Shown here: positions 24,434 to 53,388 of the stretch, piece after piece
Position numbering within the stretch: the stretch's first letter is position 1
Layout of the letters: each line of letters opens with the position of its first letter
The notes under the pieces: generated by a model
The model's input: the letters and a program-made list of their open reading frames with translations, nothing else
Database searches by the model: none
What the model was told of the DNA's origin: nothing
Origin: Candidatus Latescibacterota bacterium
GTDB lineage: Bacteria > Latescibacterota > UBA2968 > SICM01
Length of the DNA: 64,000 bases
Direction of reading: 5' to 3'
Assembly (NCBI GenBank): GCA_965217865.1
Contig: CBDCJO010000001.1
Span: 552,972 to 616,971, forward strand
Program-made: the position numbers and the translations under genes

Positions 24434-24756
24434 TTCATGAAAGTATTTGAACTTGGATACCCCTTCCTTTGGAAGGGGAGAAGAAGTTTAGCTTGCCGAA
24501 GGCAAGCTAAAAGGGTGTCTTATCGTGTTCAGACCACTGAGACACAAATCGACTCAGGAGGCATACGATGGGACTCCGACGGACCAGTCACGCAGTCTAT
24601 GATAGCCAGTATCCTCTGGTATGGGCACCGAAGTACCGGAAATGGATTCTGCGAGGTGACCTTCGAGCGTATGTGGGCAAGCTGTTTCATCGGATAGCAG
24701 AAGATTTTGGGGGTGGGAGTGGTTAATGCCCCGCCCTTTGGGCGGGGTGGTTTACT
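24434..24756 (+). mobile_element. IS200/IS605 internal-deletion derivative (MITE-like, 323 bp)
   Basis: Collinear with both ends of the 1726-2336 copy in inverted orientation. Keeps all terminal hairpins and the first ~48 tnpA codons, joined directly to the last 4 codons. The junction lies in a shared TTTGG. Confidence 0.85.
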
Positions 24757-24787: not shown

Positions 24788-25225
24788 CTACTTGCCACGA
24801 CGTTCCCATGCCCGGCCCAAGGCCCGAATACTTTCCCAGATCGATCTCCATGAGCTAGGCTGGGTGTCTCTCCTGGGCACTTCGCCTGTTTCCGTTTGGT
24901 AGTAGCTGTTGCGTCTGGTCCAGGCCTTTTGCCGCACCAGCGCGATTTCAGCTTCCGAAAAGCCGCGCGCCCACCGGACGATTCCTTCATCGATCCAGTA
25001 GTGTGACCTGCACGAAAAACTCCAGTTCCCGATGGACGGCTCCAGGGAGATCGTTCTCCCGTCATAGGTGAGCCTCCACTCGACGGGGCCAAGAGGGGTC
25101 ACCACCTCCTCCCCGCACCCGCACGCACACCGGTGGACCACCGTGCCGAAACGCATCGACACATACAGAACACCGTCATCCAGCTGTTCCGGTATGTGAT
25201 CCACGAATTCGTTGCGCAATCTCAT
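24788..25225 (-). CDS. Cys/His-rich small protein, DUF6527-like (putative Zn-binding)
   Basis: 145 aa. HRCACGCGEEVVTPL ... LEPSIGNWSFSCRSHYWI. Start overlaps the upstream stop (ATGA 25222-25225). Confidence 0.6.
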   Translation of the reverse strand: MRLRNEFVDHIPEQLDDGVLYVSMRFGTVVHRCACGCGEEVVTPLGPVEWRLTYDGRTISLEPSIGNWSFSCRSHYWIDEGIVRWARGFSEAEIALVRQKAWTRRNSYYQTETGEVPRRDTQPSSWRSIWESIRALGRAWERRGK

Positions 25226-26412
25226 TGGCTATCGTCAGCCTGCCCCAGCATCCTGTTGCTCATGTGATTTCCGTCGATCGTGTAAGTGCTCCTGTCCTCT
25301 TTGCCAAGGTCCATGTAAAACCCCCGGTGCTTCTTCCACCGGATTACCGCGAGGGCCGCATTCAGCGCGTTCAGTTCCACGATCTGCACGTTCCTCTCGT
25401 ACTCGCCGACGTCCCGCAATCCGCCCTCACCGCGTCGTACCGCCGAGCTCTTCGGCGTCTCACAGAAGCTCGTTCTCACGACCCCTACCAGCTTGTCGTC
25501 CGTCTTCTCGATGCCCATTCCCACGTCGACGAACGGCACTCCCATCCGGTCCAGTGTCGGCAGCAGCCACTGCCTAGTTTCGTTGTCGTCGACGGCGACA
25601 AACACGAAATCGAGGTCGCCAAGCACATTGACGTTATCGGCCTCCACATCGAATTCGTGCGCGACGACGCCGCTCCTTATCTTCGCGTACCGTTCGCTGT
25701 ACAGTTGAGCCTTGGTCGGTCTCTTCTCGAGCTCCTCGGCTGTCGTCGGACCGGGCGCGCGGAACGCGTTGTGCTGCTCGAACCGGTCGCCGTCGAACAG
25801 ATGGATCTCCGCGACGCGTGTCTTGCTGACGTAATCCAGAATGTACGATCCCGTACCTCCGAGCCCGATTATGCCGATCCTGTCTCCGGACAGTCTCTCG
25901 TTCAACCGGGTTATCCCAGCGCGGCTCGACGCAGTTTCCATGAACACGAAAGGGTCGTTCGGGTCTGCCGACAGCACCAGTTTCCCCGCGCAGGCTATCG
26001 CTCCGGGGTCTATTCGTTTTGCACACCGTCCAATCACCTGCGCGTAGTGCGTCAGCTTGTGATGGTAATCCTCGTACTTCCCCGCCACCGGCCTTGCCGA
26101 GAAGTAATGGTCGACCCATAGGCCTTCGGCGAGCTCTTGGCGTTGGCTGCTGTTCCGCAGAGCCTCGATCGGCGCACCGCGGTCGTCGCAGGGGTACTCG
26201 CCCGCAAAGTACATCGTGTGATCTGGCGGCGGCCCCGTTTCCGAACCGTCGACGGCTAGGGGACAGACGAGCTGACCGTACTTCACGGTTCGCTCGCTTG
26301 TAACGTACGGGACGCGATGCAGCACCAAATGCCCGGAGCGGACCTCTATCTCGTAGCCGTCCTCGACGAGTCGCTTAAGGTCCTCCCTACGACTGATCAG
26401 TTCTTGTGACAT
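25222..26412 (-). CDS. ThiF/MoeB/E1-like adenylyltransferase with ~165-aa N-terminal extension (possible E2-like module)
   Basis: 396 aa. GIIGLGGTGSY (GxGxxG), LFDGDRFEQHNAFR and FVAVDDNETR are typical of E1 adenylation domains. The N-terminal part carries Cys in the contexts GQLVCPL and GEYPCDDRG. Confidence 0.85.
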   Translation of the reverse strand: MSQELISRREDLKRLVEDGYEIEVRSGHLVLHRVPYVTSERTVKYGQLVCPLAVDGSETGPPPDHTMYFAGEYPCDDRGAPIEALRNSSQRQELAEGLWVDHYFSARPVAGKYEDYHHKLTHYAQVIGRCAKRIDPGAIACAGKLVLSADPNDPFVFMETASSRAGITRLNERLSGDRIGIIGLGGTGSYILDYVSKTRVAEIHLFDGDRFEQHNAFRAPGPTTAEELEKRPTKAQLYSERYAKIRSGVVAHEFDVEADNVNVLGDLDFVFVAVDDNETRQWLLPTLDRMGVPFVDVGMGIEKTDDKLVGVVRTSFCETPKSSAVRRGEGGLRDVGEYERNVQIVELNALNAALAVIRWKKHRGFYMDLGKEDRSTYTIDGNHMSNRMLGQADDSQ

Positions 26413-26659
26413 TGATAATCGTTCCGTCCCGCACCTTCAGCCTTTGCCCCTCGTCTAGCTCTCCTTCGGGTATTCGGCTGCCGGCCTCCCGGAACGTGAT
26501 CGTGAACACGATCTGCGGGCCCCTGGCCGGATCGTCGAATGCAAGGTCCACTAGCTCGTCGAACGACAGTTCGTCACGCTCGACCTGCCTTTGCCGCCCA
26601 TTGACCGTTATCAAGAACGTCTTGTCGTCCAATCGGTCTAGTTGGTTTTCCTTACTCAC
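26387..26659 (-). CDS. multiubiquitin-like single beta-grasp (Ubl) protein
   Basis: 90 aa. FLITVNGRQRQVERDELSFDELVDLAF...GQRLKVRDGTIINVTRTDQS matches my memory of the Multi_ubiq family consensus. It lies immediately upstream of the E1-like gene. Confidence 0.65.
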   Translation of the reverse strand: MSKENQLDRLDDKTFLITVNGRQRQVERDELSFDELVDLAFDDPARGPQIVFTITFREAGSRIPEGELDEGQRLKVRDGTIINVTRTDQS

Positions 26660-26859
26660 GAGATTCTCCTCCTATGCTCAGTCGTGTCCTTAGAGATAGT
26701 TTGAAAACGTTCGATGCCTGGCTTCATAAAACTCACGACCTCGTCCGGCTCGACAAATTTTGTTTCTCCGCCACAGAATTTCTGGAAGAGTTTGTGTGTG
26801 TCCGGGGTCTTTCCCACCAGCGCGAGAATCTTGATACCCGGAAGATCTGGCTTAGACAC
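26656..26859 (-). CDS. hypothetical 67-aa protein (GTG start)
   Basis: ORF overlaps the Ubl start by 4 nt (ATGA) and the upstream 40-codon ORF by 8 nt. No recognisable motif. Confidence 0.4.
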   Translation of the reverse strand: MSKPDLPGIKILALVGKTPDTHKLFQKFCGGETKFVEPDEVVSFMKPGIERFQTISKDTTEHRRRIS

Positions 26860-26974
26860 GCGTTTTCGCTATCGGTCGATGCCGGATAATGTAGATGTCC
26901 GAGGGCGGCTTCTCGACAGCAGGATTCTCTTTGGCGAATGCCCCAACGCCGAGTTCTTCGATGTTCGGTTCCAT
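26852..26974 (-). CDS. hypothetical 40-aa leader ORF of the Ubl operon
   Basis: ATG 26972-26974 lies 8 nt downstream of a strong GGAGGAGG RBS (26983-26990). Sequence MEPNIEELGVGAFAKENPAVEKPPSDIYIIRHRPIAKTRV. May be the 5' part of a frameshifted ~107-aa gene together with 26656-26859. Confidence 0.35.
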   Translation of the reverse strand: MEPNIEELGVGAFAKENPAVEKPPSDIYIIRHRPIAKTRV

Positions 26975-27056
26975 TAGATTAACCTCCTCCTAGTTGCCCA
27001 GGATCACAACTTAAGAGGGTGGCGTCCGACAGACCAGAACACGAAGCCTTGGTCAG

Positions 27057-27086
27057 GTAGTACAGATTTCTGAGAATCTGAATCAA
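27057..27086 (-). promoter_or_regulatory. putative promoter with operator palindrome for the Ubl operon
   Basis: On the minus strand, TTGATT (27081-27086) - 18 nt - TACTAC (27057-27062). The 18-nt spacer is exactly the inverted repeat CAGATT-N6-AATCTG (27063-27080). Confidence 0.4.
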
Positions 27087-27232
27087 ACATCGTACATCTC
27101 CTTTGAGAAAGGGCTGAAAGTTTGCGCTTTGTTTCCGAGACATTAACCCTTATATTATAACCTACCGAATTATGGAGAAGAGCCCTAATAATATAACCCA
27201 ATTAATTATATTGTCAAGGGGAAAAATTGGCC

Positions 27233-27562
27233 ATGTCAGAATTTGGAGAGAGGCTGAGGAGAGCAAGGCAGAATAAGGGGATGCTGCAGGAAGACTTAGC
27301 ACAGGCAATGGGGCTAACTCAGGCATCGATTTCCCAGTTCGAGAAGGGACAAAGGACACCCACCCCGGAAAATATCCGTAAATTAGCTCAAATACTGGGG
27401 GTGAAGGAGGAGGACCTAGCAGGCAAAGATAAGGGGAATTTCGAAAGGGCATTGTTAATGCGAAATATGCGAGATTTGTCCCCTGGATCTCTCAGTAGGA
27501 TCAACGAGTATGTGGAGCTGATAAAGGAGAGTGAAAGAGCAAGAAGACGGAGAAAGAGATGA
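27233..27562 (+). CDS. XRE-family helix-turn-helix transcriptional regulator
   Basis: RLRRARQNKGMLQEDLAQAMGLTQASISQFEKGQRTPT is a canonical Cro/C1 HTH. A ~45-aa C-terminal tail follows. Confidence 0.9.
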   Translation: MSEFGERLRRARQNKGMLQEDLAQAMGLTQASISQFEKGQRTPTPENIRKLAQILGVKEEDLAGKDKGNFERALLMRNMRDLSPGSLSRINEYVELIKESERARRRRKR

Positions 27563-28434
27563 TTTTGAGACGTACAATAGCGGCCTACGCCTCTCAGCTA
27601 CGTGAAAACATGGGAATCGGTGAAAACGCCGCCATTGGACACCTCGTTCATCATATCAAAGAAGCGGGATATGAGTATCTTGAGGAATCCTTTGGTGATG
27701 AATTTTCAGGATTTTCGCAATCCCTTGGTGGAGGCAAGTATCTTATAGGATTCAATCGTGAGCACCTCTGGAGCATCAAATTTCAAAGATTCACTTTGTC
27801 TCACGAATTAGGGCACCTTACTATCCCGGAGCACCGCAGGATATTGGACAACACAGGCTTGCATCGGTCCAAGAGTGAGTTTCAATCCCAAGATCCGATT
27901 GAGCGGGAGGCGGATTACTTCGCCATATGCTTTCTGACTCCGAGGAAGTCCTTTCAAGATGCTATGAAACACAAGGAATACACAAAAGACACCATCTTTG
28001 GGCTCTCCGAAAAGTTTGGGATATCGGCCTATGCTACTATCCTTCGGTTCATAGAACTGACAGACCAGTCTTGCACTTTGATCGTGAGTAACAGCACTGG
28101 AATGATTGAATACGAAAGACGGTCCAACCGGATGAAGGAATCCTGCCAACAGAACTTTTTGGCTGGAAAGAAAATTAAGGAGACAACTCTTACTTTTGAC
28201 TATATCAAGGGCCGGAAAGGGGAGAACAGCTGTACCGTCTCTCTTCGGGAATGGTTTGAGGATCTGCCTGAAGAGATTGAAATCGATGCGACCGAATCTG
28301 TAATCGACCTGGGATATAACAACAAGTATCTGACCTTGTTGACTCCACATGTTACGGATGTGGACGAATATAGTAGGGACTGGGAATCACCAAGATCATT
28401 CCCAAAACACGGAGGTCGACCTAGTACCTATTGA
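27559..28434 (+). CDS. ImmA/IrrE-family zinc metallopeptidase (DUF955) with C-terminal domain
   Basis: 291 aa. HEXXH in SHELGHLTIPEH. ATGA overlap with the XRE gene. AT-rich relative to the neighbouring operon. Confidence 0.85.
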   Translation: MILRRTIAAYASQLRENMGIGENAAIGHLVHHIKEAGYEYLEESFGDEFSGFSQSLGGGKYLIGFNREHLWSIKFQRFTLSHELGHLTIPEHRRILDNTGLHRSKSEFQSQDPIEREADYFAICFLTPRKSFQDAMKHKEYTKDTIFGLSEKFGISAYATILRFIELTDQSCTLIVSNSTGMIEYERRSNRMKESCQQNFLAGKKIKETTLTFDYIKGRKGENSCTVSLREWFEDLPEEIEIDATESVIDLGYNNKYLTLLTPHVTDVDEYSRDWESPRSFPKHGGRPSTY

Positions 28435-28444
28435 CATTTAAAAC

Positions 28445-29725
28445 GAGCGTGCCGAATGTTTGTTATCTCCCCGATCCGTTCGCTGTGGGAGGAGGATCGG
28501 CATGCCCAACAGGAAGTACATCGTCCGTCCAAGTTGCGATGAGCGGAAGCACTTGCAGGATCTGGTAAGCAAAGGCCGGACACAGGCCTACCGGATCCGA
28601 CACGCACACATTCTGATGAAGGCCGACGCGGATGGCCCTTGCTGGGGCGACGAAGCCATCGCCCAAGCGTTTTCGTGCCACAGACGCACCGCGGAAGGCA
28701 TTCGCAAGCGCTTTGTGGTCCAAGGGCTCGACGCAGCCCTTGAGCGGAAGAAGCGGGAACGACCGCCCATCGAACCGATTCTGGACGGCGAAAAGGAAGC
28801 TCGCTTGATCGCCCTGGCCTGCAGCCAGCCGCCGAAAGGTCGTAGCCGCTGGACGCTGGAGTTGCTCGCTGACAAGCTGGTTGAACTCAACATCGTCGAG
28901 AGCATCTCCTATCGGACCGTGCAACGGGCGCTCAAAAAAACGAACTCAAGCCCCATCTGAAAACGTGCTGGGTGATTCCGCCCAGGGAAAACGCCGCATT
29001 CGTAGCTTGCATGGAGAATCTTCTGGATCTGTATCACCGGCCCTATGATCCGGAAAGGCCGCTTTTGGCCATGGACGAACACCCCGTGCAGTTGACCGGA
29101 GAGACACGCATCCCGGTCCCGGAAAAACCGGGGCATCCCCGACGTCACGACTATGAGTATGAGCGTAACGGCACAGCCGCGAATTTCTTGTTCCTCGAGC
29201 CCCTGACCGGACGTCGGAAGGTCCACGTCCGGGAACGCAGGACCGCCGTAGACTGGGCTTACGAGATCCAGGAACTGCTTGAGGTGGACTACCCGGATGC
29301 GCAAGTCGTGGTGCTGGTCTGCGACAACCTCAGCACTCACACCATCGCATCTCTCTACAAGGCCTTCCCACCCGAAAAGGCCCGTTCTCTAGCCAAACGC
29401 CTCGAATTGCACTACACGCCCAAGCACGGTAGCTGGCTCAATATCGCCGAGATCGAACTGAGCGTCCTTGCCAGACAATGCCTGCACAGCCGCATTCCTG
29501 ACCTGCAGACCCTCACCAACGAAGTGGAGGCCTGGAAATGTGATCGAAACGAGAAACACAGAACCCTTGATTGGCAGTTCACGACCACCGACGCCCGCAT
29601 CAAACTGAAGAAGCTATATCCCAAGTTTTAGGTGTCATGGTGTACTAGGTAGAGGGAGGAACCCCGGACAGGCGATTTCACAAAGTCAGTCACTAAACAC
29701 TTTCGGATTAGCAGATAAGGGCTTG
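28445..29725 (+). mobile_element. IS630-family insertion sequence
   Basis: Two-frame transposase plus imperfect terminal inverted repeats (..GCCGAATGTTTGTTA.. near 28455-28475, reverse complement ..TCCGAAAGTGTTTAGT.. near 29700-29722). Ends are approximate. Confidence 0.75.
28502..29631 (+). CDS. IS630-family transposase (OrfA-OrfB via -1 frameshift)
   Basis: OrfA spans 28502-28960 (HTH). The OrfB frame runs to 29631 (DDE: DEHPVQ, CDNLSTH, SWLNIAE). A -1 slip on the A7 run 28934-28940 yields ...RALKKNELKPHLKTCWVIPP..., the usual IS630 junction. Confidence 0.85.
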
Positions 29726-30810: not shown

Positions 30811-31290
30811 ATGGACGTCTTCGCTTTCCGAGAAGAGCTTGTATCCGAATACGAACGCTTTTCTCGAAGCTTCACCAGAATCCGCGCGGCAGACATCCTC
30901 CAGGCCGTCGACGAGGCTTACGCGGGCGGCCGTTTTTGGCCCGCCCCGCTCATCCAGTTGAACCCGAACTTCGTGCCGGGAGGGTCCATCGACGACCTTG
31001 TGTCACACGGCACCCTCGACCCGGAATGCGGAAAGATCTTCCGGATCAAGAAACCAACCGACACCTTCGGCAAACAACTCGTACTGCACCAGCATCAGAC
31101 CGAAGCCATCGACATCGCGCGGCGAGGCGAGAGCCATGTGCTGACGACGGGTACAGGTTCCGGCAAGTCGCTCAGTTATTTCATCCCCATCATCGACGAC
31201 GTGTTGCGGCGCAAGAAGTCCGGTGACCCCTGTCCGGGCATCTCTGCAATCGTCGTGTATCCAATGAACCCTCTGTGCAACAGCCAACTC
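30811..31290 (+). pseudogene. DEAD/DEAH-box (DUF1998-associated type) helicase, N-terminal fragment
   Basis: ...WPAPLIQLNPNF..., LHQHQTEAI, Walker A TTGTGSGKS, VVYPMNPLCNSQ. Reading stops after ~160 aa, before motif II. Confidence 0.75.
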
Positions 31291-31329
31291 GACAGATCCA
31301 CTCGAAACCCTTGATCGAGCGCTGCTATC

Positions 31330-31930
31330 GCGAGTTCCTGCTCTGCACCGCGGCGCGCGCCAACTCGAGGCTTTCGCGGAGGTGCTCTCCGTGGTCGACG
31401 TCGACCAGTTCTACGGCATTGAGCTTGGTGAGTTCCCCACCCGCATCGCGGAAACAGCGATGTGGATGATGGACCACATCATGAACAACAGGCTCAGCCT
31501 GGAGTTCGGTCAGACCTATGCGCGCATCTCTCTGGAGAAGTCACCTCATATCGTCCATGGCGATGCGCTGGATACCGACTGGTCGGACTTGCTGCCGCCG
31601 GAGAAGTGTTCCTTCGTGTTTGGCAATCCACCCTTTCGTTGGCGCGAAATATCAGTTGGCTGAACAACGCGCACAAGTGCGCCGCATCGCAGCATTGGGG
31701 AAGTCTGGCGGCACGCTGGACTATGTGACCGCGTGGTTCATCAAGGCAGGTGGGTATCTCCGGAAAGGCCGCACGCGTATCGGTTTCGTCGCCACCAATT
31801 CGATCACTCAAGGCGAACAGGTTGGGCAACTCTGGCCGATCCTGTTCGACCGTTGCAAGTTGGAGATCGCCTTCGCGCACCGCACCTTTGCCTGGGGATC
31901 GGACGCACGTGGCAAGGCACACGTGCATGT
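31330..31930 (+). pseudogene. N6-adenine DNA methyltransferase (MmeI/YeeA-like class) internal fragment, frameshifted
   Basis: FYGIELGEFPTRIAETAMWMM...FGNPPF (NPPF motif IV). After a shift near 31636 comes LDYVTAWFIKAG...FVATNSITQGEQV...FAHRTFAWGSDARGKAHVHVV. The SAM motif I region is absent, and the fragment is cut at 31930 by the repeat module. Confidence 0.75.
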
Positions 31931-32680
31931 CGTGAAATGCCGGGTCAGCAAATTCTTATAGGCCGGCTCGACTTTCTCGCTGTTCTGAAATTCATGCCAC
32001 TCCGCTACGACCTTGCCTTCCGGAAAGTCCATGAATCCAGGGGCTACACCCATCAGTATCTCCCAGGGCTACTTCTTCGGGTGTCGATCGAAGAACGGCA
32101 GGCAGTTCGCTTGGGGGGACATAAGGACGTCGGGCGTTGTCAGAGGCTGCGATGCTCGAACACCAAGCCGGCATTAAATAAATCACGGTAAAGCATAATA
32201 GAAACCGGAAGATACCTGGGAGATTCCCGGCATTCATCATCGGACTACGGCCTCCTTCCTCAGAACGGAACCGCTTGGCTGAGACACTAAAAAGATCCAC
32301 GTGCCAACCCTCAGAGGAGGATAAAACTCTAATAAGATGCGATTATTCAGGTATCTCTCTGTTCCGGGACAGATAGTTCCACCGCTATCTCTTCCCCATA
32401 CGCTCACTTTGTACCCGACCAGATCAATTCTCGTCGTGTCAATATGAGAAAACAACCTACATCCAGAGCCAGCCCAGCCATGAAATCGTACGCGCATGGT
32501 ATCGGAGACCCTCAAGGGAGATGCAACCGTCAGGCTGTCAACATGGATTTGATAAAACCGACCATCAGGGTCCGGTTTATCCGAGTTAAAAGGGTTAAGG
32601 CCGCAGGACACCATCAGAAAGGTCAATGAGACAAGGACCAGGATTTTTCGTCGCATTACCGATGCTCCTTTCTCCCTCCC
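31931..32680 (-). repeat. duplicated lipoprotein module, copy 1 (paralogous to 48127-48950)
   Basis: Collinear, diverged similarity to 48127-48950, with the same left boundary sequence ATGCCGGGTCAGCAAATTCTTATAGG. Confidence 0.8.
32237..32656 (-). CDS. hypothetical lipoprotein
   Basis: AAGGAG RBS, then MRRKILVLVSLTFLMVSCG (lipobox LMVSC). Paralogue at 48429-48926. Confidence 0.6.
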   Translation of the reverse strand: MRRKILVLVSLTFLMVSCGLNPFNSDKPDPDGRFYQIHVDSLTVASPLRVSDTMRVRFHGWAGSGCRLFSHIDTTRIDLVGYKVSVWGRDSGGTICPGTERYLNNRILLEFYPPLRVGTWIFLVSQPSGSVLRKEAVVR

Positions 32681-32843
32681 TCGGGATGGGTGGGGAGATG
32701 CGGTGGTCCTCGACCAAGCGGACCTGCTAGACGAGTTCCAACCCGCTCCCCTCACCGAAGCAAGGGGAGATCCGGGAATAAGGGTCGAAACCTTTGAAAT
32801 GTTACTGTTTCAATCCGCTCCCCTCACCGAAGCAAGGGCCGCT
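32663..32843 (-). CRISPR. CRISPR remnant, repeat type X (37 nt), left block
   Basis: Degenerate repeat at 32663-32699, full repeat at 32735-32771, and a repeat at 32807-32843 whose last 5 nt are replaced. Spacers are 35 nt each. On the minus strand the repeat reads ATCTCCCCTTGCTTCGGTGAGGGGAGCGGATTGAAAC (7-bp stem, ATTGAAAC 3' end). Confidence 0.6.
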
Positions 32844-32845
32844 TT

Positions 32846-33838
32846 CTAGTGCTCAACGCCTTGCGGCATCTGATAGGTAATCACCCGGCTCCAGGGCGCT
32901 CTCGATATCGGCCTGGGGAAGTGCTCAACGCCTTGCGGCATCTGATAGGTAATCACGGTTTTCTTTGCGGCCTTTCGAGCGCGTTGCGTGGGGTCAAGCG
33001 CCGTCAACCCGGTAGGCGCATCGAGTGGGTCAGTCGTACCAGCATCGCGATCCAGACAATGGACCTCAAGGACCGCCATTGGCCACGCGGCGGCCAGTGC
33101 AAACGCGAGGTAGTACGGCTCATTGAGGCGAACGACAAGCACGAACCCGAATCCGGTTGAATGCTGCTCGACTGGGTGGCCACTCGCTTCCTGCAAGGCT
33201 GCTGCAAGATGAGCAAGCGTCCTTTCCCGCGTTGTACTGTCAACATCTTGAGCGGAATTAAGAGCCGGTATCGAATCATCGGTTCCGATCCGGACTCGTT
33301 GCATAGGGACCTTCTCCCACGCGAAGAGTTCTTGGTCAGGTAACACTCTGCTCGCAAGGAGCGCTTGCCGGATAGGGCTTAATCCTGGAAGGATCTTAAC
33401 CTGTAGTGGAAAAGGGCCGCTGTCTTCGCTTGAAAGGTCATAGATCCACGGGTGGATTCGGATGAGCGATTCGCCATGGCTATCTTCGAGGGTGACGATT
33501 ATCTCGGACATCGCGGGAAACTGATTGCGGTCCGCAATGCTGACGATTCGCCGTTTGTCTCCACCGCTCGGCGAAGCCAACCCCAAGCGATGGTGAGAAT
33601 GCCAGTCACCGAAATAGCGCAGTCCCCAATCGGCTGCAAGCCTTTCACTGAGCCCTCTCAGATATTCAACGTCAAGCCGAAAGTGTGCGTGATCACGTTG
33701 CGCCTTCGGTCCAGCCTTCGTCGCAAGGTAGATTGTTGGCAGATCGTGCCACCGACCGAATAGATCCCCTCCCGTCTCGACACTCGACAGACCAAGCCGA
33801 AGCTTCAGATGCGATTGCGCACAGTTCAGATTCCCACG
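32846..33838 (-). pseudogene. JAB/MPN (JAMM-like) metalloprotease with ~170-aa C-terminal domain; 5' end missing, 3' end runs into repeat Y
   Basis: Open frame of 330 codons: ...SSVETGGDLFG... (JAMM Glu) and GDWHSHHRLGLASPSGGD (HxH...S..D). There is no ATG/GTG/TTG upstream of the catalytic residues; the first is the TTG at 33586 used by the track. Confidence 0.65.
32849..32956 (-). CRISPR. mini-array of a second repeat type Y (36 nt x2, one 36-nt spacer)
   Basis: Identical GTGCTCAACGCCTTGCGGCATCTGATAGGTAATCAC at 32849-32884 and 32921-32956. On the minus strand it reads GTGATTACC...GGCGTTGAGCAC. It also lies in-frame at the 3' end of the JAB ORF, so a coding repeat is an alternative. Confidence 0.45.
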
Positions 33839-33899
33839 TCACAAGGAAGCCTCGCGGGGTCTGGGGTTGTGAGCGCCGCTTTATCAGCCGGGTCAGGCG

Positions 33900-33991
33900 C
33901 CGGAGCAAGGGGAGATTTCGGATGGCCATATCTGATAGGGTTGAGTATTTGAAAGTTTCAATCCGCTCCCCTCACCGAAGCAAGGGGAGAT
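33900..33991 (-). CRISPR. CRISPR remnant, repeat type X, right block
   Basis: A 17-nt 3' repeat fragment at 33900-33916 (1 mismatch), a 38-nt spacer, and a full repeat at 33955-33991. Confidence 0.6.
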
Positions 33992-34093
33992 TTCATCAGC
34001 CCCCAGCTGATCTGGGCGCACGTCCGGGACACCGTCGCCGTCAGGGTCCCCAAGCTCCTCACCGTTGGTGGCCCCGTCTCCGTCGGAGTCCAG
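33992..34093 (-). pseudogene. secreted thrombospondin-type-3-repeat protein, downstream part (interrupted by IS3 copy 1)
   Basis: The minus frame reads DSDGDGATNGEELGDPDGDGVPDV.... It joins in-frame to 35659-35902 once the IS and one CCAG duplication are removed. The 3' end abuts CRISPR repeat X. Confidence 0.6.
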
Positions 34094-35658
34094 TATCTTT
34101 TGTCTGAGATCGCCCGAAAAAACGGGGGCAAGGTCGAAGCAAGATCCTGGTTGCCTGTAGGGTTGAGAAGGGATACATATTTTGGGATATCCCTGACCTC
34201 ACAGGAGGAGTAAAGATGGAGCAACTGTCCTCAAACAGTGACCCGGTCAAGAAGCGCAGGAGCTTGTCCCCGGAACAGAAGTATGAGATTTTCCTTGAAG
34301 CCAGCCGGGGAGATGTTCCCATTGCACAGGTGCTGCGGAAATGGGGCATTCATTCCTCGGATCTAAAGCGTATTCGTGAGTCGGTCAAGTCCGGGGCCCT
34401 CAAGGAGTTCAAGGGTCGCCGGAGCCGCAAGCCGATGGTATCGGCTGAGGAGGTGGAGCAGCTGCGCAAAGAGCGGGCACGCCTGGAGCAAACGATCATT
34501 GAGCAATCTGTGGAACTTTCCCTGCTAAAAAAAAGTGTGAATGGGATCTGACAGGCCCGATCAAGGGCCACCGGGTGCAAGCTGAGGTCAAACGCGAGAT
34601 CCTCTTAATGGTCCATCGGGCCAAGGAGAAAGGGGTGAAACTCACCCGTTCTTGCGAGATCCTACAGCTTCCCCTCCAGCGGTATTGTGCCTGGAGCCGG
34701 CGAGATCGAGAAGAGAAGCTGGATGGGGTGTCGGACCCGCTTTTGGATGGGAAGCCCGGGCCCGCCCCTGATGAGGCCCCACACGGATTGCTGAGGGAGG
34801 AGAAAGAGCAAATCCCGGCCCTCTTAAGGGATGAGACCTATGCCGATCTGCCTCCCCATCAGCTGGCGGTGGTAGCCTCAGAGAAGGGGGTAGTGCAGGC
34901 CTCGGCCTCCAGCTTCTACCGACAGGCCAGGAAAGAACGTCTGGCACGCAGGAAACAGGTGAGGACGCCGGTCAAGCAGAGCAAGCCCCAGGTCAAACCT
35001 GAAGGTCCTAATCAGGTCTGGAGCTGGGACCTGACCTACATCCCATTTTTCGGTTTGTTCCTGTATTTTACCGCCATTCTCGACGTGTATTCCAGGAAGA
35101 TCGTAGGATGGAAGCTCTCCTTCAACGCGACCGTGGAGCAGGTCAAACAGGCCTGGGATCAAGCCCTTGCCAACGAAGGACTGCTGGACCTGGACACTGG
35201 GCCCATAAGCTTGACAGCCCTCTCAGATCACGGATCTCAGATGAAGGCCAAATCGATGGCCCAATTCTTCAAGGACCTGGGCATCTCGCAGCTGTTTGCC
35301 CGATATCAAACACCCACGGACAACGCCTGGATCGAAGCCTTTTTCCGGACATTCAAATACGACTGGCTGCGCTTCCAGGACATCTTCACATTCCATCAAC
35401 TGGAAGGCCTGATTGATTCCTTCATTCACAGCTACAACGCCGAACGCTATCACGGGGCAATACAGTATGTCACGCCTCTTCAGAGGCATAAAGGCCAGCA
35501 TCAAAAGATTCTTCACCACCGACAAGGTCGAAAGGAGGAGGCTCGGCAGCGCCGCATAGAAATCAATCGGCAAAGAACATCCCAGACCATCCACAAGGCT
35601 GCCTGAATCTTGCTTGGACCTTTATCTGCTTTTCTCTTGTTATCTCAGAATAGATACA
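34094..35658 (+). mobile_element. IS3-family insertion sequence, copy 1 (1565 bp)
   Basis: OrfA/OrfB pair. Imperfect terminal inverted repeats (TATCTTTTGTCTGAGAT / reverse complement TGTATCTATTCTGAGAT). Flanking CCAG direct repeat (34090-34093, 35659-35662). Near-identical inverted copy at 45523-47087. Confidence 0.9.
34216..35606 (+). CDS. IS3-family transposase OrfAB (-1 programmed frameshift)
   Basis: OrfA 34216-34551 (HTH and leucine-zipper-like). A8 slippery run at 34527-34534. The -1 frame continues ...KKKCEWDLTGPIKGHRVQAEVKREI... into the rve/DDE domain (WSWDLTYI, SDHGSQ, DNAWIEAFF) and ends at 35606. Confidence 0.9.
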
Positions 35659-35902
35659 CCAGGGCGGCCAGACCGGCGTTCCAGTTGACCGTGGCCGACG
35701 CCCCCATGCCGTTCAGAAAACCGCTTTCGACCACCGATCCGAAGATGTTGCGGGCTCCACCTCCGGCCGGGTTGACGTGGTAGTTGGCACAGCTGGAAAC
35801 GCTGCCGTTCGGGATCTGAGAAGGACGGCCGGGCCTGGAAAAAGCGTCGGACGTGAGTGCCATGAACAGCAGCGCAAATGAAATTGGAACCAGACGTTTC
35901 AT
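35659..35902 (-). pseudogene. secreted thrombospondin-type-3-repeat protein, N-terminal part
   Basis: MKRLVPISFALLFMALTSDAF signal peptide, then ...GSVSSCANYHVNPAGGGARNIFG... (CxxCH-like site reading CANYH). Interrupted at 35658 by IS3. Confidence 0.6.
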
Positions 35903-36890: not shown

Positions 36891-36993
36891 GCAAGCTACG
36901 AATGCGGCGTTTTCCTTGGGCGGAATCACCCAGCACGTTTTCAGATGGGGCTTGAGTTCGTTTTTTTGAGCGCCCGTTGCACGGTCCGATAGG
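36891..36993 (-). mobile_element. 103-bp IS630 fragment
   Basis: Reverse complement of about 28908-29010 of the IS630 copy, with one mismatch seen. Includes the A7/T7 slippery run. Confidence 0.75.
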
Positions 36994-42689: not shown

Positions 42690-43121
42690 ATTGCACTAGT
42701 CCTAAAATAAGCGAATAGGCTTGTTGAGCGGTGTGTTATACAAGATTTCGGAGCATTTCAGACTTGTGACTTGGTGGAGATGATGTCTGGGCTGTTTTTG
42801 TGATTGTTTCGGCATGCGATTGTCTAATTAACTGAGTTTGCGGACGTGTTTTAGCCGGGGTGGACGGACTTGTCCCTGTGATGTTACGACGACAGGTGCT
42901 GACATGGCAGTCAGGCCGGTTTGAGCCATCTGATTCTGTTCCAGGCCGGGAAGAAGTCAGTCATCCACCGGTTGTAGCCCAAGACACGATAGATGATCTG
43001 TCTTCCCCGGGTCACGATCTGGCAAGGGATCCAGATCAGATTCTGGAGGAAGGCGCGAAACTCCATTCTCAGAAGTTGATCGCGACGCTCACGCTTTCGG
43101 ATCATCAACGCGAACCAGGCT
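42690..43121 (-). mobile_element. IS1380-family 3'-terminal fragment (~430 bp)
   Basis: Matches the last ~430 bp of the full copy 51535-53388 (transposase tail AWFALMIRKRERRDQLL...RIRWLKPA plus the terminal ...GGACTAGTGCAAT), in inverted orientation. Confidence 0.85.
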
Positions 43122-45522: not shown

Positions 45523-47087
45523 TGTATCTATTCTGAGATAACAAGAGAAAAGTAGATAAAGGTCCAAGCAAGATTCAGGCAGCCTTGTGGATGGTCTGGG
45601 ATGTTCTTTGCCGATTGATTTCTATGCGGCGCTGCCGAGCCTCCTCCTTTCGACCTTGTCGGTGGTGAAGAATCTTTTGATGCTGGCCTTTATGCCTCTG
45701 AAGAGGCGTGACATACTGTATTGCCCCGTGATAGCGTTCGGCGTTGTAGCTGTGAATGAAGGAATCAATCAGGCCTTCCAGTTGATGGAATGTGAAGATG
45801 TCCTGGAAGCGCAGCCAGTCGTATTTGAATGTCCGGAAAAAGGCTTCGATCCAGGCGTTGTCCGTGGGTGTTTGATATCGGGCAAACAGCTGCGAGATGC
45901 CCAGGTCCTTGAAGAATTGGGCCATCGATTTGGCCTTCATCTGAGATCCGTGATCTGAGAGGGCTGTCAAGCTTATGGGCCCAGTGTCCAGGTCCAGCAG
46001 TCCTTCGTTGGCAAGGGCTTGATCCCAGGCCTGTTTGACCTGCTCCACGGTCGCGTTGAAGGAGAGCTTCCATCCTACGATCTTCCTGGAATACACGTCG
46101 AGAATGGCGGTAAAATACAGGAACAAACCGAAAAATGGGATGTAGGTCAGGTCCCAGCTCCAGACCTGATTAGGACCTTCAGGTTTGACCTGGGGCTTGC
46201 TCTGCTTGACCGGCGTCCTCACCTGTTTCCTGCGTGCCAGACGTTCTTTCCTGGCCTGTCGGTAGAAGCTGGAGGCCGAGGCCTGCACTACCCCCTTCTC
46301 TGAGGCTACCACCGCCAGCTGATGGGGAGGCAGATCGGCATAGGTCTCATCCCTTAAGAGGGCCGGGATTTGCTCTTTCTCCTCCCTCAGCAATCCGTGT
46401 GGGGCCTCATCAGGAGCGGGCCCGGGCTTCCCATCCAAAAGCGGGTCCGACACCCCATCCAGCTTCTCTTCTCGATCTCGCCGGCTCCAGGCACAATACC
46501 GCTGGAGGGGAAGCTGTAGGATCTCGCAAGAACGGGTGAGTTTCACCCCTTTCTCCTTGGCCCGATGGACCATTAAGAGGATCTCGCGTTTGACCTCAGC
46601 TTGCACCCGGTGGCCCTTGATCGGGCCTGTCAGATCCCATTCACACTTTTTTTTAGCAGGGAAAGTTCCACAGATTGCTCAATGATCGTTTGCTCCAGGC
46701 GTGCCCGCTCTTTGCGCAGCTGCTCCACCTCCTCAGCCGATACCATCGGCTTGCGGCTCCGGCGACCCTTGAACTCCTTGAGGGCCCCGGACTTGACCGA
46801 CTCACGAATACGCTTTAGATCCGAGGAATGAATGCCCCATTTCCGCAGCACCTGTGCAATGGGAACATCTCCCCGGCTGGCTTCAAGGAAAATCTCATAC
46901 TTCTGTTCCGGGGACAAGCTCCTGCGCTTCTTGACCGGGTCACTGTTTGAGGACAGTTGCTCCATCTTTACTCCTCCTGTGAGGTCAGGGATATCCCAAA
47001 ATATGTATCCCTTCTCAACCCTACAGGCAACCAGGATCTTGCTTCGACCTTGCCCCCGTTTTTTCGGGCGATCTCAGACAAAAGATA
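45523..47087 (-). mobile_element. IS3-family insertion sequence, copy 2 (1565 bp, inverted relative to copy 1)
   Basis: Near-identical to 34094-35658 (two substitutions noticed). Flanked by a CTGAT direct repeat (45518-45522, 47088-47092). Confidence 0.9.
45575..46965 (-). CDS. IS3-family transposase OrfAB (-1 frameshift), copy 2
   Basis: OrfA 46630-46965 and OrfB 45575-46606 are identical in protein to copy 1. Slippery T8 (A8 on the coding strand) at 46647-46654. Confidence 0.9.
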
Positions 47088-48126: not shown

Positions 48127-48950
48127 GAATGCCGGGTCAGCAAATTCTTATAGGCCGGCTCGACTTTCTCGCTGTTCTGAAATTCATGCCACTCCGCTAG
48201 GATCTTGCCTTCTGGAAAGTCCTTGAATCCAGGGGCTACACCCATCAGTATCTCCCTGGGCTACTTCTTCGGGTGTCGATTGAAGAACGGCAGGCACTTC
48301 GCTCGGGGGGACATAGGGACGTCGGGCGTTGTCAGAGGCAGCGATGTCCGAACACCATGCCAGCATGGAATAAAGCACGGCAAAGCATAATAGAAACCGG
48401 AAGACAACTGGGAGATTCCCGGCATTCATCATCGGACTACGGCCTCCTTTCTCAGAACAGAACCGTCTGGCTGAGACACTAAAAAGATCCACGTACCAAC
48501 CCTCAGAGGTGGATAAAACTCTAAGATGTGGTCCCGATTCCATTCAGGATTCAGGTATCTCACTATTCCGGGACATGGTCCTGCATGGAGATTGTGTTTT
48601 CCCCATAGGCTCACTTTGTACCCGACCAGATCAATTCTCGTCGTGTCAATATGAGAAAACATCCCACATCCAGAGCCCTCCCCGCCATAAAATCGTACGT
48701 GCATGGTATCAGAGACCGCCAACGGGGATGTAGTTTTCACCAGTAAGGTTCGGAATGTACCTCGTAGGGGATCAAAGACCCTCAAGGGGGATCCAACCGA
48801 CACGCTGTCAACATGGATTTGATAAATCCGATAAGCAGGGTCCGGTTTATCCGAGTTAAAAGGGTTAAGGCCGCAGGACACCATCAGAAAGGTCAATGAG
48901 ACAAGGACCGGGATTTTTCGTCGCATGACCGATGCTCCTTTCCCCTCCCT
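48127..48950 (-). repeat. duplicated lipoprotein module, copy 2
   Basis: Paralogous to 31931-32680. Has an extra ~75-bp segment inside the lipoprotein gene. Confidence 0.8.
48429..48926 (-). CDS. hypothetical lipoprotein (paralogue of 32237-32656)
   Basis: MRRKIPVLVSLTFLMVSCG lipobox. Collinear with copy 1. Confidence 0.6.
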   Translation of the reverse strand: MRRKIPVLVSLTFLMVSCGLNPFNSDKPDPAYRIYQIHVDSVSVGSPLRVFDPLRGTFRTLLVKTTSPLAVSDTMHVRFYGGEGSGCGMFSHIDTTRIDLVGYKVSLWGKHNLHAGPCPGIVRYLNPEWNRDHILEFYPPLRVGTWIFLVSQPDGSVLRKEAVVR

Positions 48951-49079
48951 TTCATGGATATCTGAACCATCCAAAACGCCGCCACGCCGGAAACACCCCT
49001 CTGCTGATTTTCTTAACGGCGGGCCGATTCAAGGCTAACTCTAACATCTGCCGCTTGAACTCTGGCGGATACGGCGGAT

Positions 49080-51534: not shown

Positions 51535-53388
51535 TTGGTACTAGTCCCTATACAAGCGTGAATTTTTCTTGGTTTTAGTAGAAAAAAGTTGAAAATGCCC
51601 CAGTTTTCAGGCCTATAGTTGTAGTGTGAAAGACAAAAAGAGGCCATCAAAAGGGGCATTTCAGATGAGAGAATATAGGAAGATTCTTCGGAACAGGGAA
51701 GCACGAATTGTCCGTCGTTTGCGTCGGAAGCAGTGGTGCAGTCAGGTCAAGCCTATGATGTCTGGGGGAAACATCCACTACGAGATAAGTGGGAAGGCCG
51801 AGGCGATCACGTGTGGGGGGATCGGCGCGTTTCACCACATGGTCCGCAGGGTTGGGCTGGTGAAAGAGATTGACCGTCATCTTCATCTTTTGAAAGTGCA
51901 TTTGCCCTGTCACGAATCAGACCACGTTCTGAACATCGCCTACAATGCGCTGGTTGGTGGTCAACGCCTTGAAGACATTGAGCTGCGCCGGCAGGATGCC
52001 ACGTTCCTGAACGCTTTGGGCGCTCAGCGTCTCCCGGATCCGGCCACAGCAGGCGACTTTACACGTCGTTTCCGGCCATCGGATATCGAGACGTTGATGG
52101 ATTGCATCAACCGGGTGCGCACCCGGATCTGGAAAAAGCGCGCCAGGGGCGAACTCAAAGAAGCCCTCATCGACATCGACGGCACCCTGGCCACCACCCT
52201 CGGAGAACGCAAGCAGGGCATGGCCCTGTCATACAACGGTATCTGGGGATACCATCCTCTCGTGGTCTCTCTGGCGAACACCAGGGAGGTGTTGTTTCTT
52301 GTGAATCGACCCGGCAATGTGCCCAGCCACGACGGTGCCGTAAAGTGGATCGATCGCGCCATCGCGCTGGTCGCCCCTTTCGCCAAACGCATCTGCCTGC
52401 GCGGAGACACCGGCTTCTCACTCACCCGGCACTTCGATCGTTGGTCGGAAAAGGTCGACTTCGTCTTCGGCATGGATGCTTACCGGGGATTGGTCAAGAT
52501 CGCCAAATCCCTGTCACAGAGCGATTGGGAGCCCTTTGAACGACAACCCAAATACCAGGTCAAAACCTCCCAGAGACAGAAACGCGAGAACGTGAAAGCC
52601 CGGATCATCCGGGAGCGCGGCTTCAAAAACATCCGACTTGCCAGTGAACGTGTTGCCGGGGTTTCGTATCGTCCTGCTCGATGCAGGAAGACCTGTCGAC
52701 TCGTGATCCTCGAAAAGAACCTGAGCGTCGAACGCGGCGAAAACGCCCTGTTCGATGACAAGCGCTGTTTCTTCTACATTACCACCCGAAAAGATCTTAC
52801 GGCCGCGGAAATCGTGAGGCTGGCCAATCGACGGTGCGATCAGGAAAACGTGATTGAACAACTCAAGAACGGGGTCAACGCCATGCGGATGCCCGTCGAC
52901 AACCTGATGAGCAACTGGGCTTACATGGTCATGACCGCCCTGGCGTGGAACCTCAAAGCCTGGTTCGCGTTGATGATCCGAAAGCGTGAGCGTCGCGATC
53001 AACTTCTGAGAATGGAGTTTCGCGCCTTCCTCCAGAATCTGATCTGGATCCCTTGCCAGATCGTGACCCGGGGAAGACAGATCATCTATCGTGTCTTGGG
53101 CTACAACCGGTGGATGACTGACTTCTTCCCGGCCTGGAACAGAATCAGATGGCTCAAACCGGCCTGACTGCCATGTCAGCACCTGTCGTCGTAACATCAC
53201 AGGGACAAGTCCGTCCACCCCGGCTAAAACACGTCCGCAAACTCAGTTAATTAGACAATCGCATGCCGAAACAATCACAAAAACAGCCCAGACATCATCT
53301 CCACCAAGTCACAAGTCTGAAATGCTCCGAAATCTTGTATAACACACCGCTCAACAAGCCTATTCGCTTATTTTAGGACTAGTGCAAT
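51535..53388 (+). mobile_element. IS1380-family insertion sequence, full copy
   Basis: 513-aa DDE transposase. Terminal inverted repeats TTGGTACTAGTCC... (left) and ...GGACTAGTGCAAT (right). The left end is good to about 3 bp. Confidence 0.8.
51626..53167 (+). CDS. IS1380-family DDE transposase
   Basis: 513 aa. GGIGAFHHM..., LIDIDGT, LRGDTGF and NRRCDQENVIEQLKNG are typical of the IS1380 / DDE_Tnp_1-like group. Start may be the ATG at 51665. Confidence 0.8.
   Translation: MKDKKRPSKGAFQMREYRKILRNREARIVRRLRRKQWCSQVKPMMSGGNIHYEISGKAEAITCGGIGAFHHMVRRVGLVKEIDRHLHLLKVHLPCHESDHVLNIAYNALVGGQRLEDIELRRQDATFLNALGAQRLPDPATAGDFTRRFRPSDIETLMDCINRVRTRIWKKRARGELKEALIDIDGTLATTLGERKQGMALSYNGIWGYHPLVVSLANTREVLFLVNRPGNVPSHDGAVKWIDRAIALVAPFAKRICLRGDTGFSLTRHFDRWSEKVDFVFGMDAYRGLVKIAKSLSQSDWEPFERQPKYQVKTSQRQKRENVKARIIRERGFKNIRLASERVAGVSYRPARCRKTCRLVILEKNLSVERGENALFDDKRCFFYITTRKDLTAAEIVRLANRRCDQENVIEQLKNGVNAMRMPVDNLMSNWAYMVMTALAWNLKAWFALMIRKRERRDQLLRMEFRAFLQNLIWIPCQIVTRGRQIIYRVLGYNRWMTDFFPAWNRIRWLKPA

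Follow-up and report, generated by a model that had tools for sequence, protein, structure and literature searches.

What happened at a CRISPR array whose repeats stand on either side of about 1 kb of other DNA: did an element insert into a repeat, or has the array come apart in some other way? The original prediction described an orphan array that had been split inside a repeat (X) by a ~1.06-kb insert carrying a second repeat (Y) and a JAB gene, with a 12-nt duplication of repeat sequence at the borders. We analysed this locus within its window, that is, the whole 64-kb stretch of DNA (64,000 nt), and arrive at another answer: the locus (32682-33991) is probably the decayed remnant of a type I-C orphan array, together with a scrap of a second array and a piece of a broken CBASS-type regulator gene, and contains no inserted element. 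Its parts and right-hand neighbours are these:

32682..32699, minus strand: degenerate X stump, the trailer-most; only GGGGAGAT (32692-32699) is exact
32700..32734, minus strand: X spacer S1, 35 nt
32735..32771, minus strand: X repeat variant with two substitutions, both in the part that yields the crRNA 5' handle
32772..32806, minus strand: X spacer S2, 35 nt
32807..32838, minus strand: first 32 nt of an X repeat, without the last 5 nt on the plus strand (the first 5 nt in crRNA sense)
32839..32848, no strand: 10-nt linker between X and Y, CCGCTTTCTA
32849..32956, no strand: Y-array scrap (Y at 32849-32884, a 36-nt spacer at 32885-32920, Y at 32921-32956)
32957..32992, no strand: 36 nt without JAB homology, probably a second Y spacer
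32993..33903, minus strand: HTH-JAB pseudogene fragment, codons ~100-401 of 420
33904..33916, minus strand: 13-nt X stump that meets JAB codon 100; its crRNA-sense sequence is ATCTCCCCTTGCT
33917..33954, minus strand: X spacer S3, 38 nt
33955..33991, minus strand: exact X repeat, at the leader-proximal end of the remainder
33992..34023, no strand: 32 nt where a leader would lie, perhaps a fourth spacer cut short; at this stretch, relatives of the neighbouring gene part from the window
34024..34093, minus strand: 3' part of a gene, starting at 35902, for a secreted Temptin_C-domain / Asp-rich-repeat protein
34094..35658, plus strand: IS3-family element with a 4-bp duplication, CCAG

The X repeats are genuine. 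Three near-full copies and two stumps alternate with spacers as in a CRISPR array, and no such matches are expected by chance (0 in 100 shuffles). The copies at 32735-32771 (two mismatches), 32807-32838 (the first 32 nt) and 33955-33991 (exact) stand as originally described, and so do the spacer lengths of 35, 35 and 38 nt; the spacers are unrelated to one another and to the repeats. The degenerate terminal copy, placed at 32663-32699, has to be shortened: its left 19 nt (32663-32681) are the native 5' upstream region of the lipoprotein gene at 32237-32656, shared with a paralogue at 48.9 kb (48870-48951) to which homology stops at about 32681, and only 32682-32699 is possibly derived from X. 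Descent of S3 from a degenerate Y repeat and kinship between S2 and S3 were both rejected, as none of the local alignments over 42 comparisons was significant; a 10-nt word common to S3 and Y has p ~5e-4 taken alone and is not significant after multiple testing. The proposed search of viral and plasmid databases gave no protospacer among phages or plasmids, nor in IMG/VR for the four spacers (S1-S3 and the Y spacer), and the whole region matched nothing in phage and plasmid collections other than the JAB gene, on Bradyrhizobium plasmids.

The likeness of X to type I-C repeats is confirmed by its relatives. Identical copies of the 37-mer build arrays of 13-66 repeats in other MAGs (4 genome-derived MAG records), where cas5c, cas8c, cas7c, cas4 and cas1c adjoin them, and in one such relative, L006, TIGR01863, TIGR01876, TIGR02589 and TIGR03640 all score above cut-off; these signature genes belong to the relatives and not to the window. 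Folded as RNA, the repeat forms a 10-bp stem with a UUCG loop and an 11-nt tail, CGGAUUGAAAC, that ends in ATTGAAAC (minimum free energy -16.8 kcal/mol, z = -3.3). Window X has the identical 37-nt repeat and the stem-loop with its 11-nt tail in common with type I-C (Dvulg) arrays, but its copies are truncated or mutated, and it lacks both the cas operon and the conserved leader hairpin of those arrays. Spacers in bona fide X arrays elsewhere measure 34-37 nt. In the surrounding community this I-C repeat reaches an extremely high abundance; it has no match in IMG/VR, and in Rfam the region has none at gathering scores, only sub-threshold CRISPR-DR matches.

Y had been set apart as a repeat different from X, correctly so, and it is a second genuine CRISPR repeat. 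The window holds two exact 36/37-mers (32848/9-32884 and 32920/1-32956), and Y recurs in arrays with varied spacers in contigs of runs X2 and X3, where more than 10 distinct sequences of 32-38 nt lie between its copies. Against Rfam CRISPR-DR33 it scores 27.6 bits, below the gathering score of 39; IMG/VR gave no match, and JGI metagenome contigs gave no array and only one chance 20-mer. JAB homology begins exactly at the expected start of a third Y repeat, where a GT is shared. The 36 nt beside the second Y copy have no similarity to the JAB 3' end, and their derivation from the JAB gene by spacer-protospacer recombination was rejected.

The JAB gene noted in the block is present only in part: the JAMM motif HSHH...SPSGGD is retained, but the gene is not intact. 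The HTH domain with the start codon (residues 1-99) and the last ~19 codons (residues ~402-420) are absent, a 7-nt insertion near 33785 shifts the frame, with tblastn matches in two frames, and nowhere does the window copy give an intact open reading frame with HTH_XRE domain, JAMM motif and C-terminal region. Two intact genes align with it between 33907 and 32993 at 92-93% identity (for L001, positions 604-1511, the nucleotide identity is 92.7%), and a search with the fragment protein on other contigs returned the window's own contig as its sole match. Intact HTH-JAB relatives occur in CBASS operons and on a prophage contig. Like the Cap3-type JAB and CapH-type HTH proteins of CBASS, they carry a CapH-like HTH and a JAB domain, and they adjoin E1-E2, cyclase and Cap4-SAVED genes; they differ from Cap3 and CapH in that a single protein of ~420 aa combines HTH and JAB and has an additional, uncharacterised C-terminal region. 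What the window retains, unlike Cap3-type proteins, is an internal fragment, a dead pseudogene.

The array is also an orphan, as had been claimed. By tblastn the 64-kb window contains no cas genes, and the conserved X leader (GCTGGTTGCTGTAACCAGC...) is absent from it; the array looks non-functional. A 180-aa, 5'-truncated Cas1c is encoded elsewhere on the same 5,782,071-bp contig; its N-terminus is not an out-of-frame reading of cas1, and the truncated locus is not on record on other contigs. Isolated arrays are well documented as remnants (PMC5294841), and the window resembles those left behind by lost CRISPR-Cas systems (for example, Enterococcus faecalis CRISPR2; PMC5294841) in its genuine repeats, unique spacers and lack of nearby cas genes, and further in its degenerate terminal repeat, the absence of any sign of spacer turnover and its place in a variable region. 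It is much more fragmented than such arrays, however, with two scraps of 2-3 repeats and no leader, and it is joined both to the remains of another repeat family and to part of a pseudogene.

Support for the joints from independent data is uneven. The positions of the JAB-X and Y-JAB joints are established, and both joints are present in independent runs. Contigs of 1,054-1,057 nt span the right border in runs X1, X2 and X3, several public runs, which come from two studies, have contigs covering 32927-33981, and a unitig corresponding to 32743-32833 was found in public runs. None of the public runs could be singled out as an RNA run. Of the two borders originally marked, at 32839 and 33899, the right one is thereby seen in independent run contigs, but the left one is not: depth across the X-Y joint (32839-32848) is zero in each of the 8 public runs in which the locus is otherwise present, and no indexed run has it. 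The stretch 33992-34023 is likewise absent from the contigs of those 8 runs, contigs that show presence and not absence, and no indexed run contains it. The left X-Y joint and the 32 nt to the right of the last repeat come from one long-read assembly alone.

On its right the array abuts a gene fragment, as described, which we identify as part of the Temptin_C gene (34024..34093); the 3' end of this gene is cut off by the array scrap and the gene is split by IS3, and run contigs show loose ends at 34024. An inverted, identical copy of the IS3 element lies at 45523-47087. We rejected the idea that an inversion between the two copies produced the odd right flank, since each has its own matching duplication (CCAG and CTGAT) and an IS-less allele exists in public runs. 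Neighbouring genes are fragments (DEAD helicase, MmeI methyltransferase) or have been struck by IS; the setting is a variable, IS-rich island with many broken defence genes.

Against this background the insertion reading can be judged, in which a single DNA of ~1.06 kb entered one X repeat through a transposition- or integrase-like staggered cut and duplicated 8-12 nt. The two X stumps do overlap (repeat positions 1-32 and 25/26-37) and share an orientation, the spacers on both sides of the 1.06-kb block are of normal length, and a foreign block between partial repeats that overlap by a few nucleotides is what IS and transposon insertions in CRISPR arrays with target-site duplication look like. 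Alignment to intact JAB genes nevertheless led us to reject the model. The right-hand X piece had been placed at 33900-33916, of which 12-13 nt (33904/5-33916) are X, but 33900-33903 (CCGG), like the mismatch, belong to native JAB codons 100-101, which are kept across the family; the crossover falls inside conserved codon I100, with R101 and R102 native, where an imperfect microhomology reads TGnTnCGG. This leaves 7-8 nt, and not 12, of true X overlap, and in place of an exact direct duplication there are 12 nt with one mismatch, a third of which (4 nt, the mismatch included) is JAB coding sequence. Nor is the block a discrete element: it has no inverted repeats at its ends, no transposase or integrase and no open reading frames beyond the JAB pseudogene and a read-through of the Y repeats, and it is itself a mosaic of two truncated, unrelated fragments. 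Two randomly truncated repeat copies would be expected to overlap, instead of leaving a gap, about half the time, and an empty-site allele (S2-X-S3) was found in none of the 8 runs. By contrast, the neighbouring IS3 (34094-35658) is cleanly bounded and flanked by a 4-bp duplication, and public runs show its empty-site allele. Insertion with target duplication is highly improbable, and of the earlier phrase 'insertion or recombination' what stands is recombination in a loose sense, as illegitimate joining at microhomology. A rival explanation is a single repair event, in which end joining closed a double-strand break in an X repeat and, in doing so, took up about 1 kb of a foreign element that had a Y array beside an HTH-JAB gene. 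In its favour, the microhomology at every joint that can be resolved is either interrupted or just 1-3 nt long, damage by type I-C Cas3 is for the most part resolved at microhomologies (10.1101/860999), members of the HTH-JAB family are found on a prophage contig as well as within mobile defence operons, and cas1c, too, is broken in this genome; the self-targeting deletions made by type I-C Cas3 (10.1101/860999) resemble the window both in their short or imperfect microhomologies and in the loss or truncation of CRISPR-Cas in the same genome. That study describes simple deletions and no capture of foreign fragments, however, and, in contrast to that study, no self-targeting spacer was identified in the window. 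Nothing ties the three joints to one event, and no donor with a Y array beside a JAB gene was found, Y being absent from the JGI and IMG/VR collections. We consider such a repair very unlikely; if true, the 7-8-nt overlap of the stumps would be a filled-in stagger, and CRISPR repeats would now and then take in fragments of rival defence systems independently of the Cas1-Cas2 ruler. A break of this kind could have arisen from self-targeting Cas3 damage or from recombination with an invading element.

Two further alternatives concern the reality and the use of the X scraps. The assembly may have collapsed strains, in which case two longer X arrays would end, on the trailer side, in the left and right scraps, and the assembler would have made or selected the joints. 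It is exactly the X-linker-Y (32838/39) and X-33992 joints that have zero depth in run contigs, the remainder matching at 100%, and neither was found in indexed runs; as is usual for trailer ends, the first repeat of each scrap is degenerate or truncated, and window and runs differ at 34061. An assembler, however, does not invent a 10-nt linker or a 32-nt flank, the 5.78-Mb contig was assembled from long reads at 32x, and the missing pieces are short branches of ~14x off a repeat node of 5,000-23,000x, a type removed by k=31 graph cleaning; we regard an artefact as unlikely. The scraps might, on the other hand, be functional satellite mini-arrays, whose transcripts, started for example at the IS3 end or made by read-through, would serve in trans an intact I-C system in another part of the genome: two X repeats are complete or almost complete, an isolated array is able to function with cas loci far away from it (PMC5294841), and the rest of the genome beyond the 64-kb window could harbour such a system. 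Yet the scraps lack a leader, no sigma-70-like promoter is predicted at them, the sole cas1c found on the contig is truncated, S3 has no downstream hairpin, the repeat upstream of S1 has two changes in the handle, and S1-S3 are the spacers for which no protospacers were found. We give this use in trans little credence.

The reading that we prefer, a decayed I-C orphan array among other scraps, would have two short trailer-end pieces of an X array (32682-32838 and 33904-33991) joined to a Y-array scrap and to an internal fragment of an HTH-JAB gene through illegitimate, microhomology-level recombination or deletion. The joints may have formed in end-joining or replication-slippage-type events while the defence loci decayed. 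The apparent 12-nt duplication would consist of the 7-8 nt by which two X copies, truncated independently of each other, overlap, and of 4 nt of JAB coding sequence with a chance resemblance to the repeat; the two stumps need not originate in one and the same repeat. No relative was found that preserves the ancestral arrangement. As it stands, the X array would presumably give no useful crRNA.

The locus is, on this account, an ordinary decayed orphan array that opens no new question. It does carry a caution, in that a gene and a CRISPR repeat were alike over a short stretch and convincingly mimicked a target-site duplication, an appearance that vanishes once the pseudogene is aligned to its intact relatives. 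For the organism, there are hints that this genome has lost I-C immunity, and the locus would be one more case in which CRISPR and CBASS loci have decayed side by side within an IS-rich defence island.

The 37-nt CRISPR repeat X occurs in the window as two array scraps (32682–32838 and 33904–33991), whose truncated copies face a block of 1.06 kb (32839–33903) that contains a second, different repeat, Y, of 36 nt and a fragment of an HTH–JAB gene, a helix-turn-helix (HTH) gene of CBASS or prophage type.

Repeats and gene fragment of the locus (X has its crRNA sense on the minus strand)
X repeat, plus-strand sequence: GTTTCAATCCGCTCCCCTCACCGAAGCAAGGGGAGAT
32735–32771: X copy, two substitutions
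32807–32838: X copy, first 32 nt, then CCGC...
33955–33991: X copy, exact
32849–32884 and 32921–32956: Y repeat, GTGCTCAACGCCTTGCGGCATCTGATAGGTAATCAC, both without mismatch
32993–33903, minus strand: HTH–JAB pseudogene fragment

These X copies lie where the original prediction had placed them; no such matches are expected in shuffled sequence, and no further piece of X or Y of at least 12 nt occurs in the 64-kb window. With multiple testing allowed for, the intervening sequences show no relationship to each other or to the repeats, as expected of spacers. When one genome per species was scanned for exact matches, the X core turned up in seven stretches belonging to four records (by label, three Candidatus Latescibacterota and one Opitutales), in which identical repeats form arrays of 13 to 66 copies with spacers of 34–37 nt. 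In one such locus (L006) the array follows genes for Cas5c, Cas8c/Csd1, Cas7/Csd2, Cas4 and Cas1c, type I-C genes that all score above curated cut-offs, and two others (L007 and L009) have Cas7, Cas3, Cas4 and Cas1 at the corresponding position. In crRNA sense X is predicted to form a hairpin (10-bp stem, UUCG loop) followed by a tail of 11 nt, which is the type I-C pattern; the earlier I-C-like call is correct. As the three cas operons read toward their arrays when the repeat is oriented as ATCTCC...ATTGAAAC, X would be transcribed from the minus strand of the window, with the leader side at high coordinates.

The exact 37-nt X repeat is present in metagenome-assembled genomes labelled Latescibacterota and Opitutales (L004–L010), Cas1c proteins 84–90% identical to the array-side Cas1c of L007 occur in others labelled Caldilineaceae, Acidobacteriia/Terriglobia and Gemmatimonadota, and X k-mers reach depths of 5,000–23,000x in public runs where the genome of the window has ~14x. 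This points to a single type I-C system, highly mobile and highly abundant, that several phyla share in these habitats. A 986-nt Logan contig (runs X2, X3 and X6) holds a second scrambled X relic with non-CRISPR flanks (X positions 13–30, a C, then positions 1–22) and, from its depth, which is similar to that of the window's genome, broken X pieces may lie at more than one site. Y likewise proved to be a genuine CRISPR repeat distinct from X, with copies separated by many different 32–38-nt sequences in contigs of runs X2 and X3; against Rfam it gives only a sub-threshold match to CRISPR-DR33, and neither JGI metagenome contigs nor IMG/VR contain it.

Within the block, the minus strand of 32993–33903 shares 92–93% DNA identity with internal parts of two intact genes (L001, 604–1511; L002, 10122–11008), whose products, of ~420 aa, carry an XRE-type HTH at the N-terminus, a JAB/JAMM domain and an additional C-terminal region. 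The genomic setting of the intact relatives is mobile defence: the L002 gene lies upstream of an E1–E2 gene, a CD-NTase-type cyclase and a Cap4–SAVED nuclease in a type II CBASS operon, the L001 gene lies three genes upstream of a cyclase, and a 59%-identical copy on an IMG/VR contig stands beside large serine recombinase and terminase genes. The family (L001, 309–1571; L002, 10001–11095; L013, 5448–6722; window, 32993–33903) is widespread, having more than 580 relatives, and comprises proteins of ~420 aa with a CapH-like XRE HTH, JAB/JAMM and an uncharacterised C-terminal region of ~170 aa, a fusion that could serve as a regulator within one chain, in analogy to CapH/CapP. The window copy begins at codon ~100, so that it has neither HTH domain nor start codon, is frameshifted by a 7-nt insertion near 33785 and loses homology at codon 401, ~19 codons before the gene end; it is a dead copy.

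The 36 nt between this fragment and the second Y (32957–32992) are not JAB sequence and match the neighbouring Y spacer in length, so that JAB homology begins exactly where a third Y repeat is expected to start; only GT is shared at this joint. The supposed insert of ~1.06 kb is thus a mosaic of a 10-nt linker, Y, spacer, Y, spacer and an internal pseudogene fragment, and inverted termini, transposase and integrase are all absent from the block. By contrast, an IS3-family element 100 nt from the array (34094–35658) has the features of a true insertion, with clean ends, a 4-bp duplication (CCAG) and an empty-site allele in public runs; an identical copy lies 9.9 kb away in inverted orientation (45523–47087) with its own duplication, CTGAT.

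At the other border, the alignment to intact JAB genes runs into what had been read as a partial X repeat, up to 33907.

The JAB–X joint in crRNA sense (slash, joint)
Window: ATCTCCCCTTGCT/CCGGCGCCTGACC
Repeat X: ATCTCCCCTTGCT/TCGGTGAGGGG
Intact JAB gene, L002: ...CACTGAT/CCGGCACCTGACC
Intact JAB gene, L001: ...TACTGAT/CCGCCGTCTGACC

Since C at 33905 is specific to X and C at 33903 to JAB, the crossover falls at 33904, within codon 100. The CGG CGC that follows encodes R101 and R102 (in the family, residue 101 is Q or R and residue 102 is always R), so 33900–33903, together with the single mismatch, are native JAB sequence that resembles the repeat by chance (TGATCCGG versus TGCTTCGG, 6/8). 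The X-derived part of the right stump is only 12–13 nt, and the true overlap of the two stumps is 7–8 nt (repeat positions 25/26–32) instead of the 12-nt duplication first described; since two copies truncated independently have about an even chance of overlapping instead of leaving a gap, this overlap carries no weight. We rejected target duplication on aligning the flanking pseudogene to its intact relatives and, with a mosaic block and such borders, the single insertion into one X repeat proposed in the original prediction is highly improbable.

On the left, the degenerate terminal copy assigned to 32663–32699 is X-derived at 32682–32699 at most, since 32663–32681 is the upstream region of a lipoprotein-like gene (32237–32656) that is duplicated with its surroundings at 48128–48945 (~91% identity), homology stopping at ~32681. 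Within this stump GGGGAGAT is exact and in register, as is usual for a decayed trailer repeat. The segmental duplication spans ~0.8 kb (31936–32675 versus 48128–48945, ~91% identity), and the X scrap begins exactly at its end. On the right, 32 nt (33992–34023) precede the 3′ part of a gene for a secreted protein with a Temptin_C domain and Asp-rich repeats (start at 35902; split by the IS3 element), which is the unrelated fragment noted earlier at this end. Relatives of this gene in the runs cease to match the window precisely at 34024; the 32 nt could therefore represent a fourth spacer in truncated form. At 34061 the window has A, whereas every public run contig that covers this position has G, including the depth fraction apparently bearing the IS3 junction, a hint of a slight difference between the assembled strain and those in the runs.

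Bona fide X arrays have a conserved hairpin-containing leader at the array end (GCTGGTTGCTGTAACCAGCGGAATACC...), variants of which occur as loose ends in public runs. As first reported, the window has neither leader nor cas genes: nothing in it resembles this leader, and Cas5c, Cas8c, Cas7c, Cas4, Cas1c and Cas3 of related loci have no tblastn match there. No sigma-70-like promoter is predicted across 32500–34400, and both X scraps look like trailer ends severed from leader-proximal parts. Elsewhere on the same contig, a 180-aa protein from the Cas1c-relative clusters (P0297) consists of 28 unrelated residues, which are no out-of-frame reading of cas1, followed by the last 152 residues of Cas1c; as the N-terminal part is missing, this genome has at least one truncated gene for I-C adaptation. 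Another assembly has a similar Cas1c fragment of 164 aa (P0299), on a contig of 5.24 Mb.

The array sits in a variable island (~24 kb to 53 kb) with IS3 and other transposases and with housekeeping genes at its borders. Directly left of the array are a broken DEAD helicase and an MmeI-type methyltransferase; these fragments (167 and 93 aa, side by side at 30811–31663) are probably what is left of a broken gene of restriction or BREX-like type. An operon of ubiquitin-like (Multi_ubiq), E1 (DUF6791–ThiF) and BubE genes adjoining an HTH and Peptidase_M78 pair (~24,800–28,450) has the look of a further module of the island, for defence or signalling. Long inverted repeats, of 432 nt (42690–43121 / 52957–53388, 100%), 277 nt (2060–2336 / 24434–24710, 96%) and 103 nt (28908–29010 / 36891–36993, 99%) probably mark further mobile-element copies bounding the island, and four tandem units of ~264–294 nt, 66–98% alike and each starting with the hairpin GACCCAGGGCGATGCCCTGGGTT, lie at 54444–55343.

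The contig of the window (ctg836679_32x_l, 5,782,071 bp, ENA assembly ERZ25067264) could be compared with eight public runs (X1–X8) from three studies that hold parts of the locus and whose contigs show presence, not absence. At 100% identity, 32643–32772 is found in X1, 32743–32833 in X1–X3 and 32855–32956 in X1–X5 (the same 102-nt unit is placed at 32848–32949 in X6 and X7), and 32927–33981 is covered by a single contig of 1,054–1,057 nt in X1–X3 and by shorter pieces in X4–X7. The left trailer, both Y repeats and the Y–JAB and JAB–X joints are therefore real and common to populations in different samples; the identities of the fragments and these two joints are direct observations. Misassembly, raised earlier for both borders, is thus answered on the right, whereas the joint of X, linker and Y (32839–32848) is in contigs of none of the eight runs. 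Nor is 33992–34023 found in the four runs tested, and neither stretch is in any indexed run; for both, the assembly is the sole source. That they are assembly artefacts or specific to one strain is nevertheless unlikely, as both form short branches of ~14x off a repeat node with a word depth of 5,000–23,000x, which graph cleaning is expected to remove, so that their absence is weak evidence.

Taken together, the locus is probably a non-functional relic in which pieces of two arrays (X and Y) and of a CBASS-type regulator gene are joined illegitimately; we infer both the loss of function and the manner of joining. As a defence island decayed, illegitimate recombination or deletion would have brought the scraps together at sites where microhomology was minimal or imperfect. 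Satellite mini-arrays used in trans, or a one-step break repair that captured foreign filler, could be invoked instead, and we regard each as very unlikely. Isolated CRISPR arrays are well documented as remnants (PMC5294841), and as type I-C Cas3 damage is resolved mainly by rearrangement at microhomologies in experiments (10.1101/860999), a self-inflicted origin of such a relic would be conceivable.

The chimera of X, Y and pseudogene adds one more case of a familiar kind, a curiosity and no new system. Its lesson is methodological, in that a chance similarity of repeat and coding sequence gave the appearance of a target duplication, which aligning the flanking pseudogene to intact relatives resolved.
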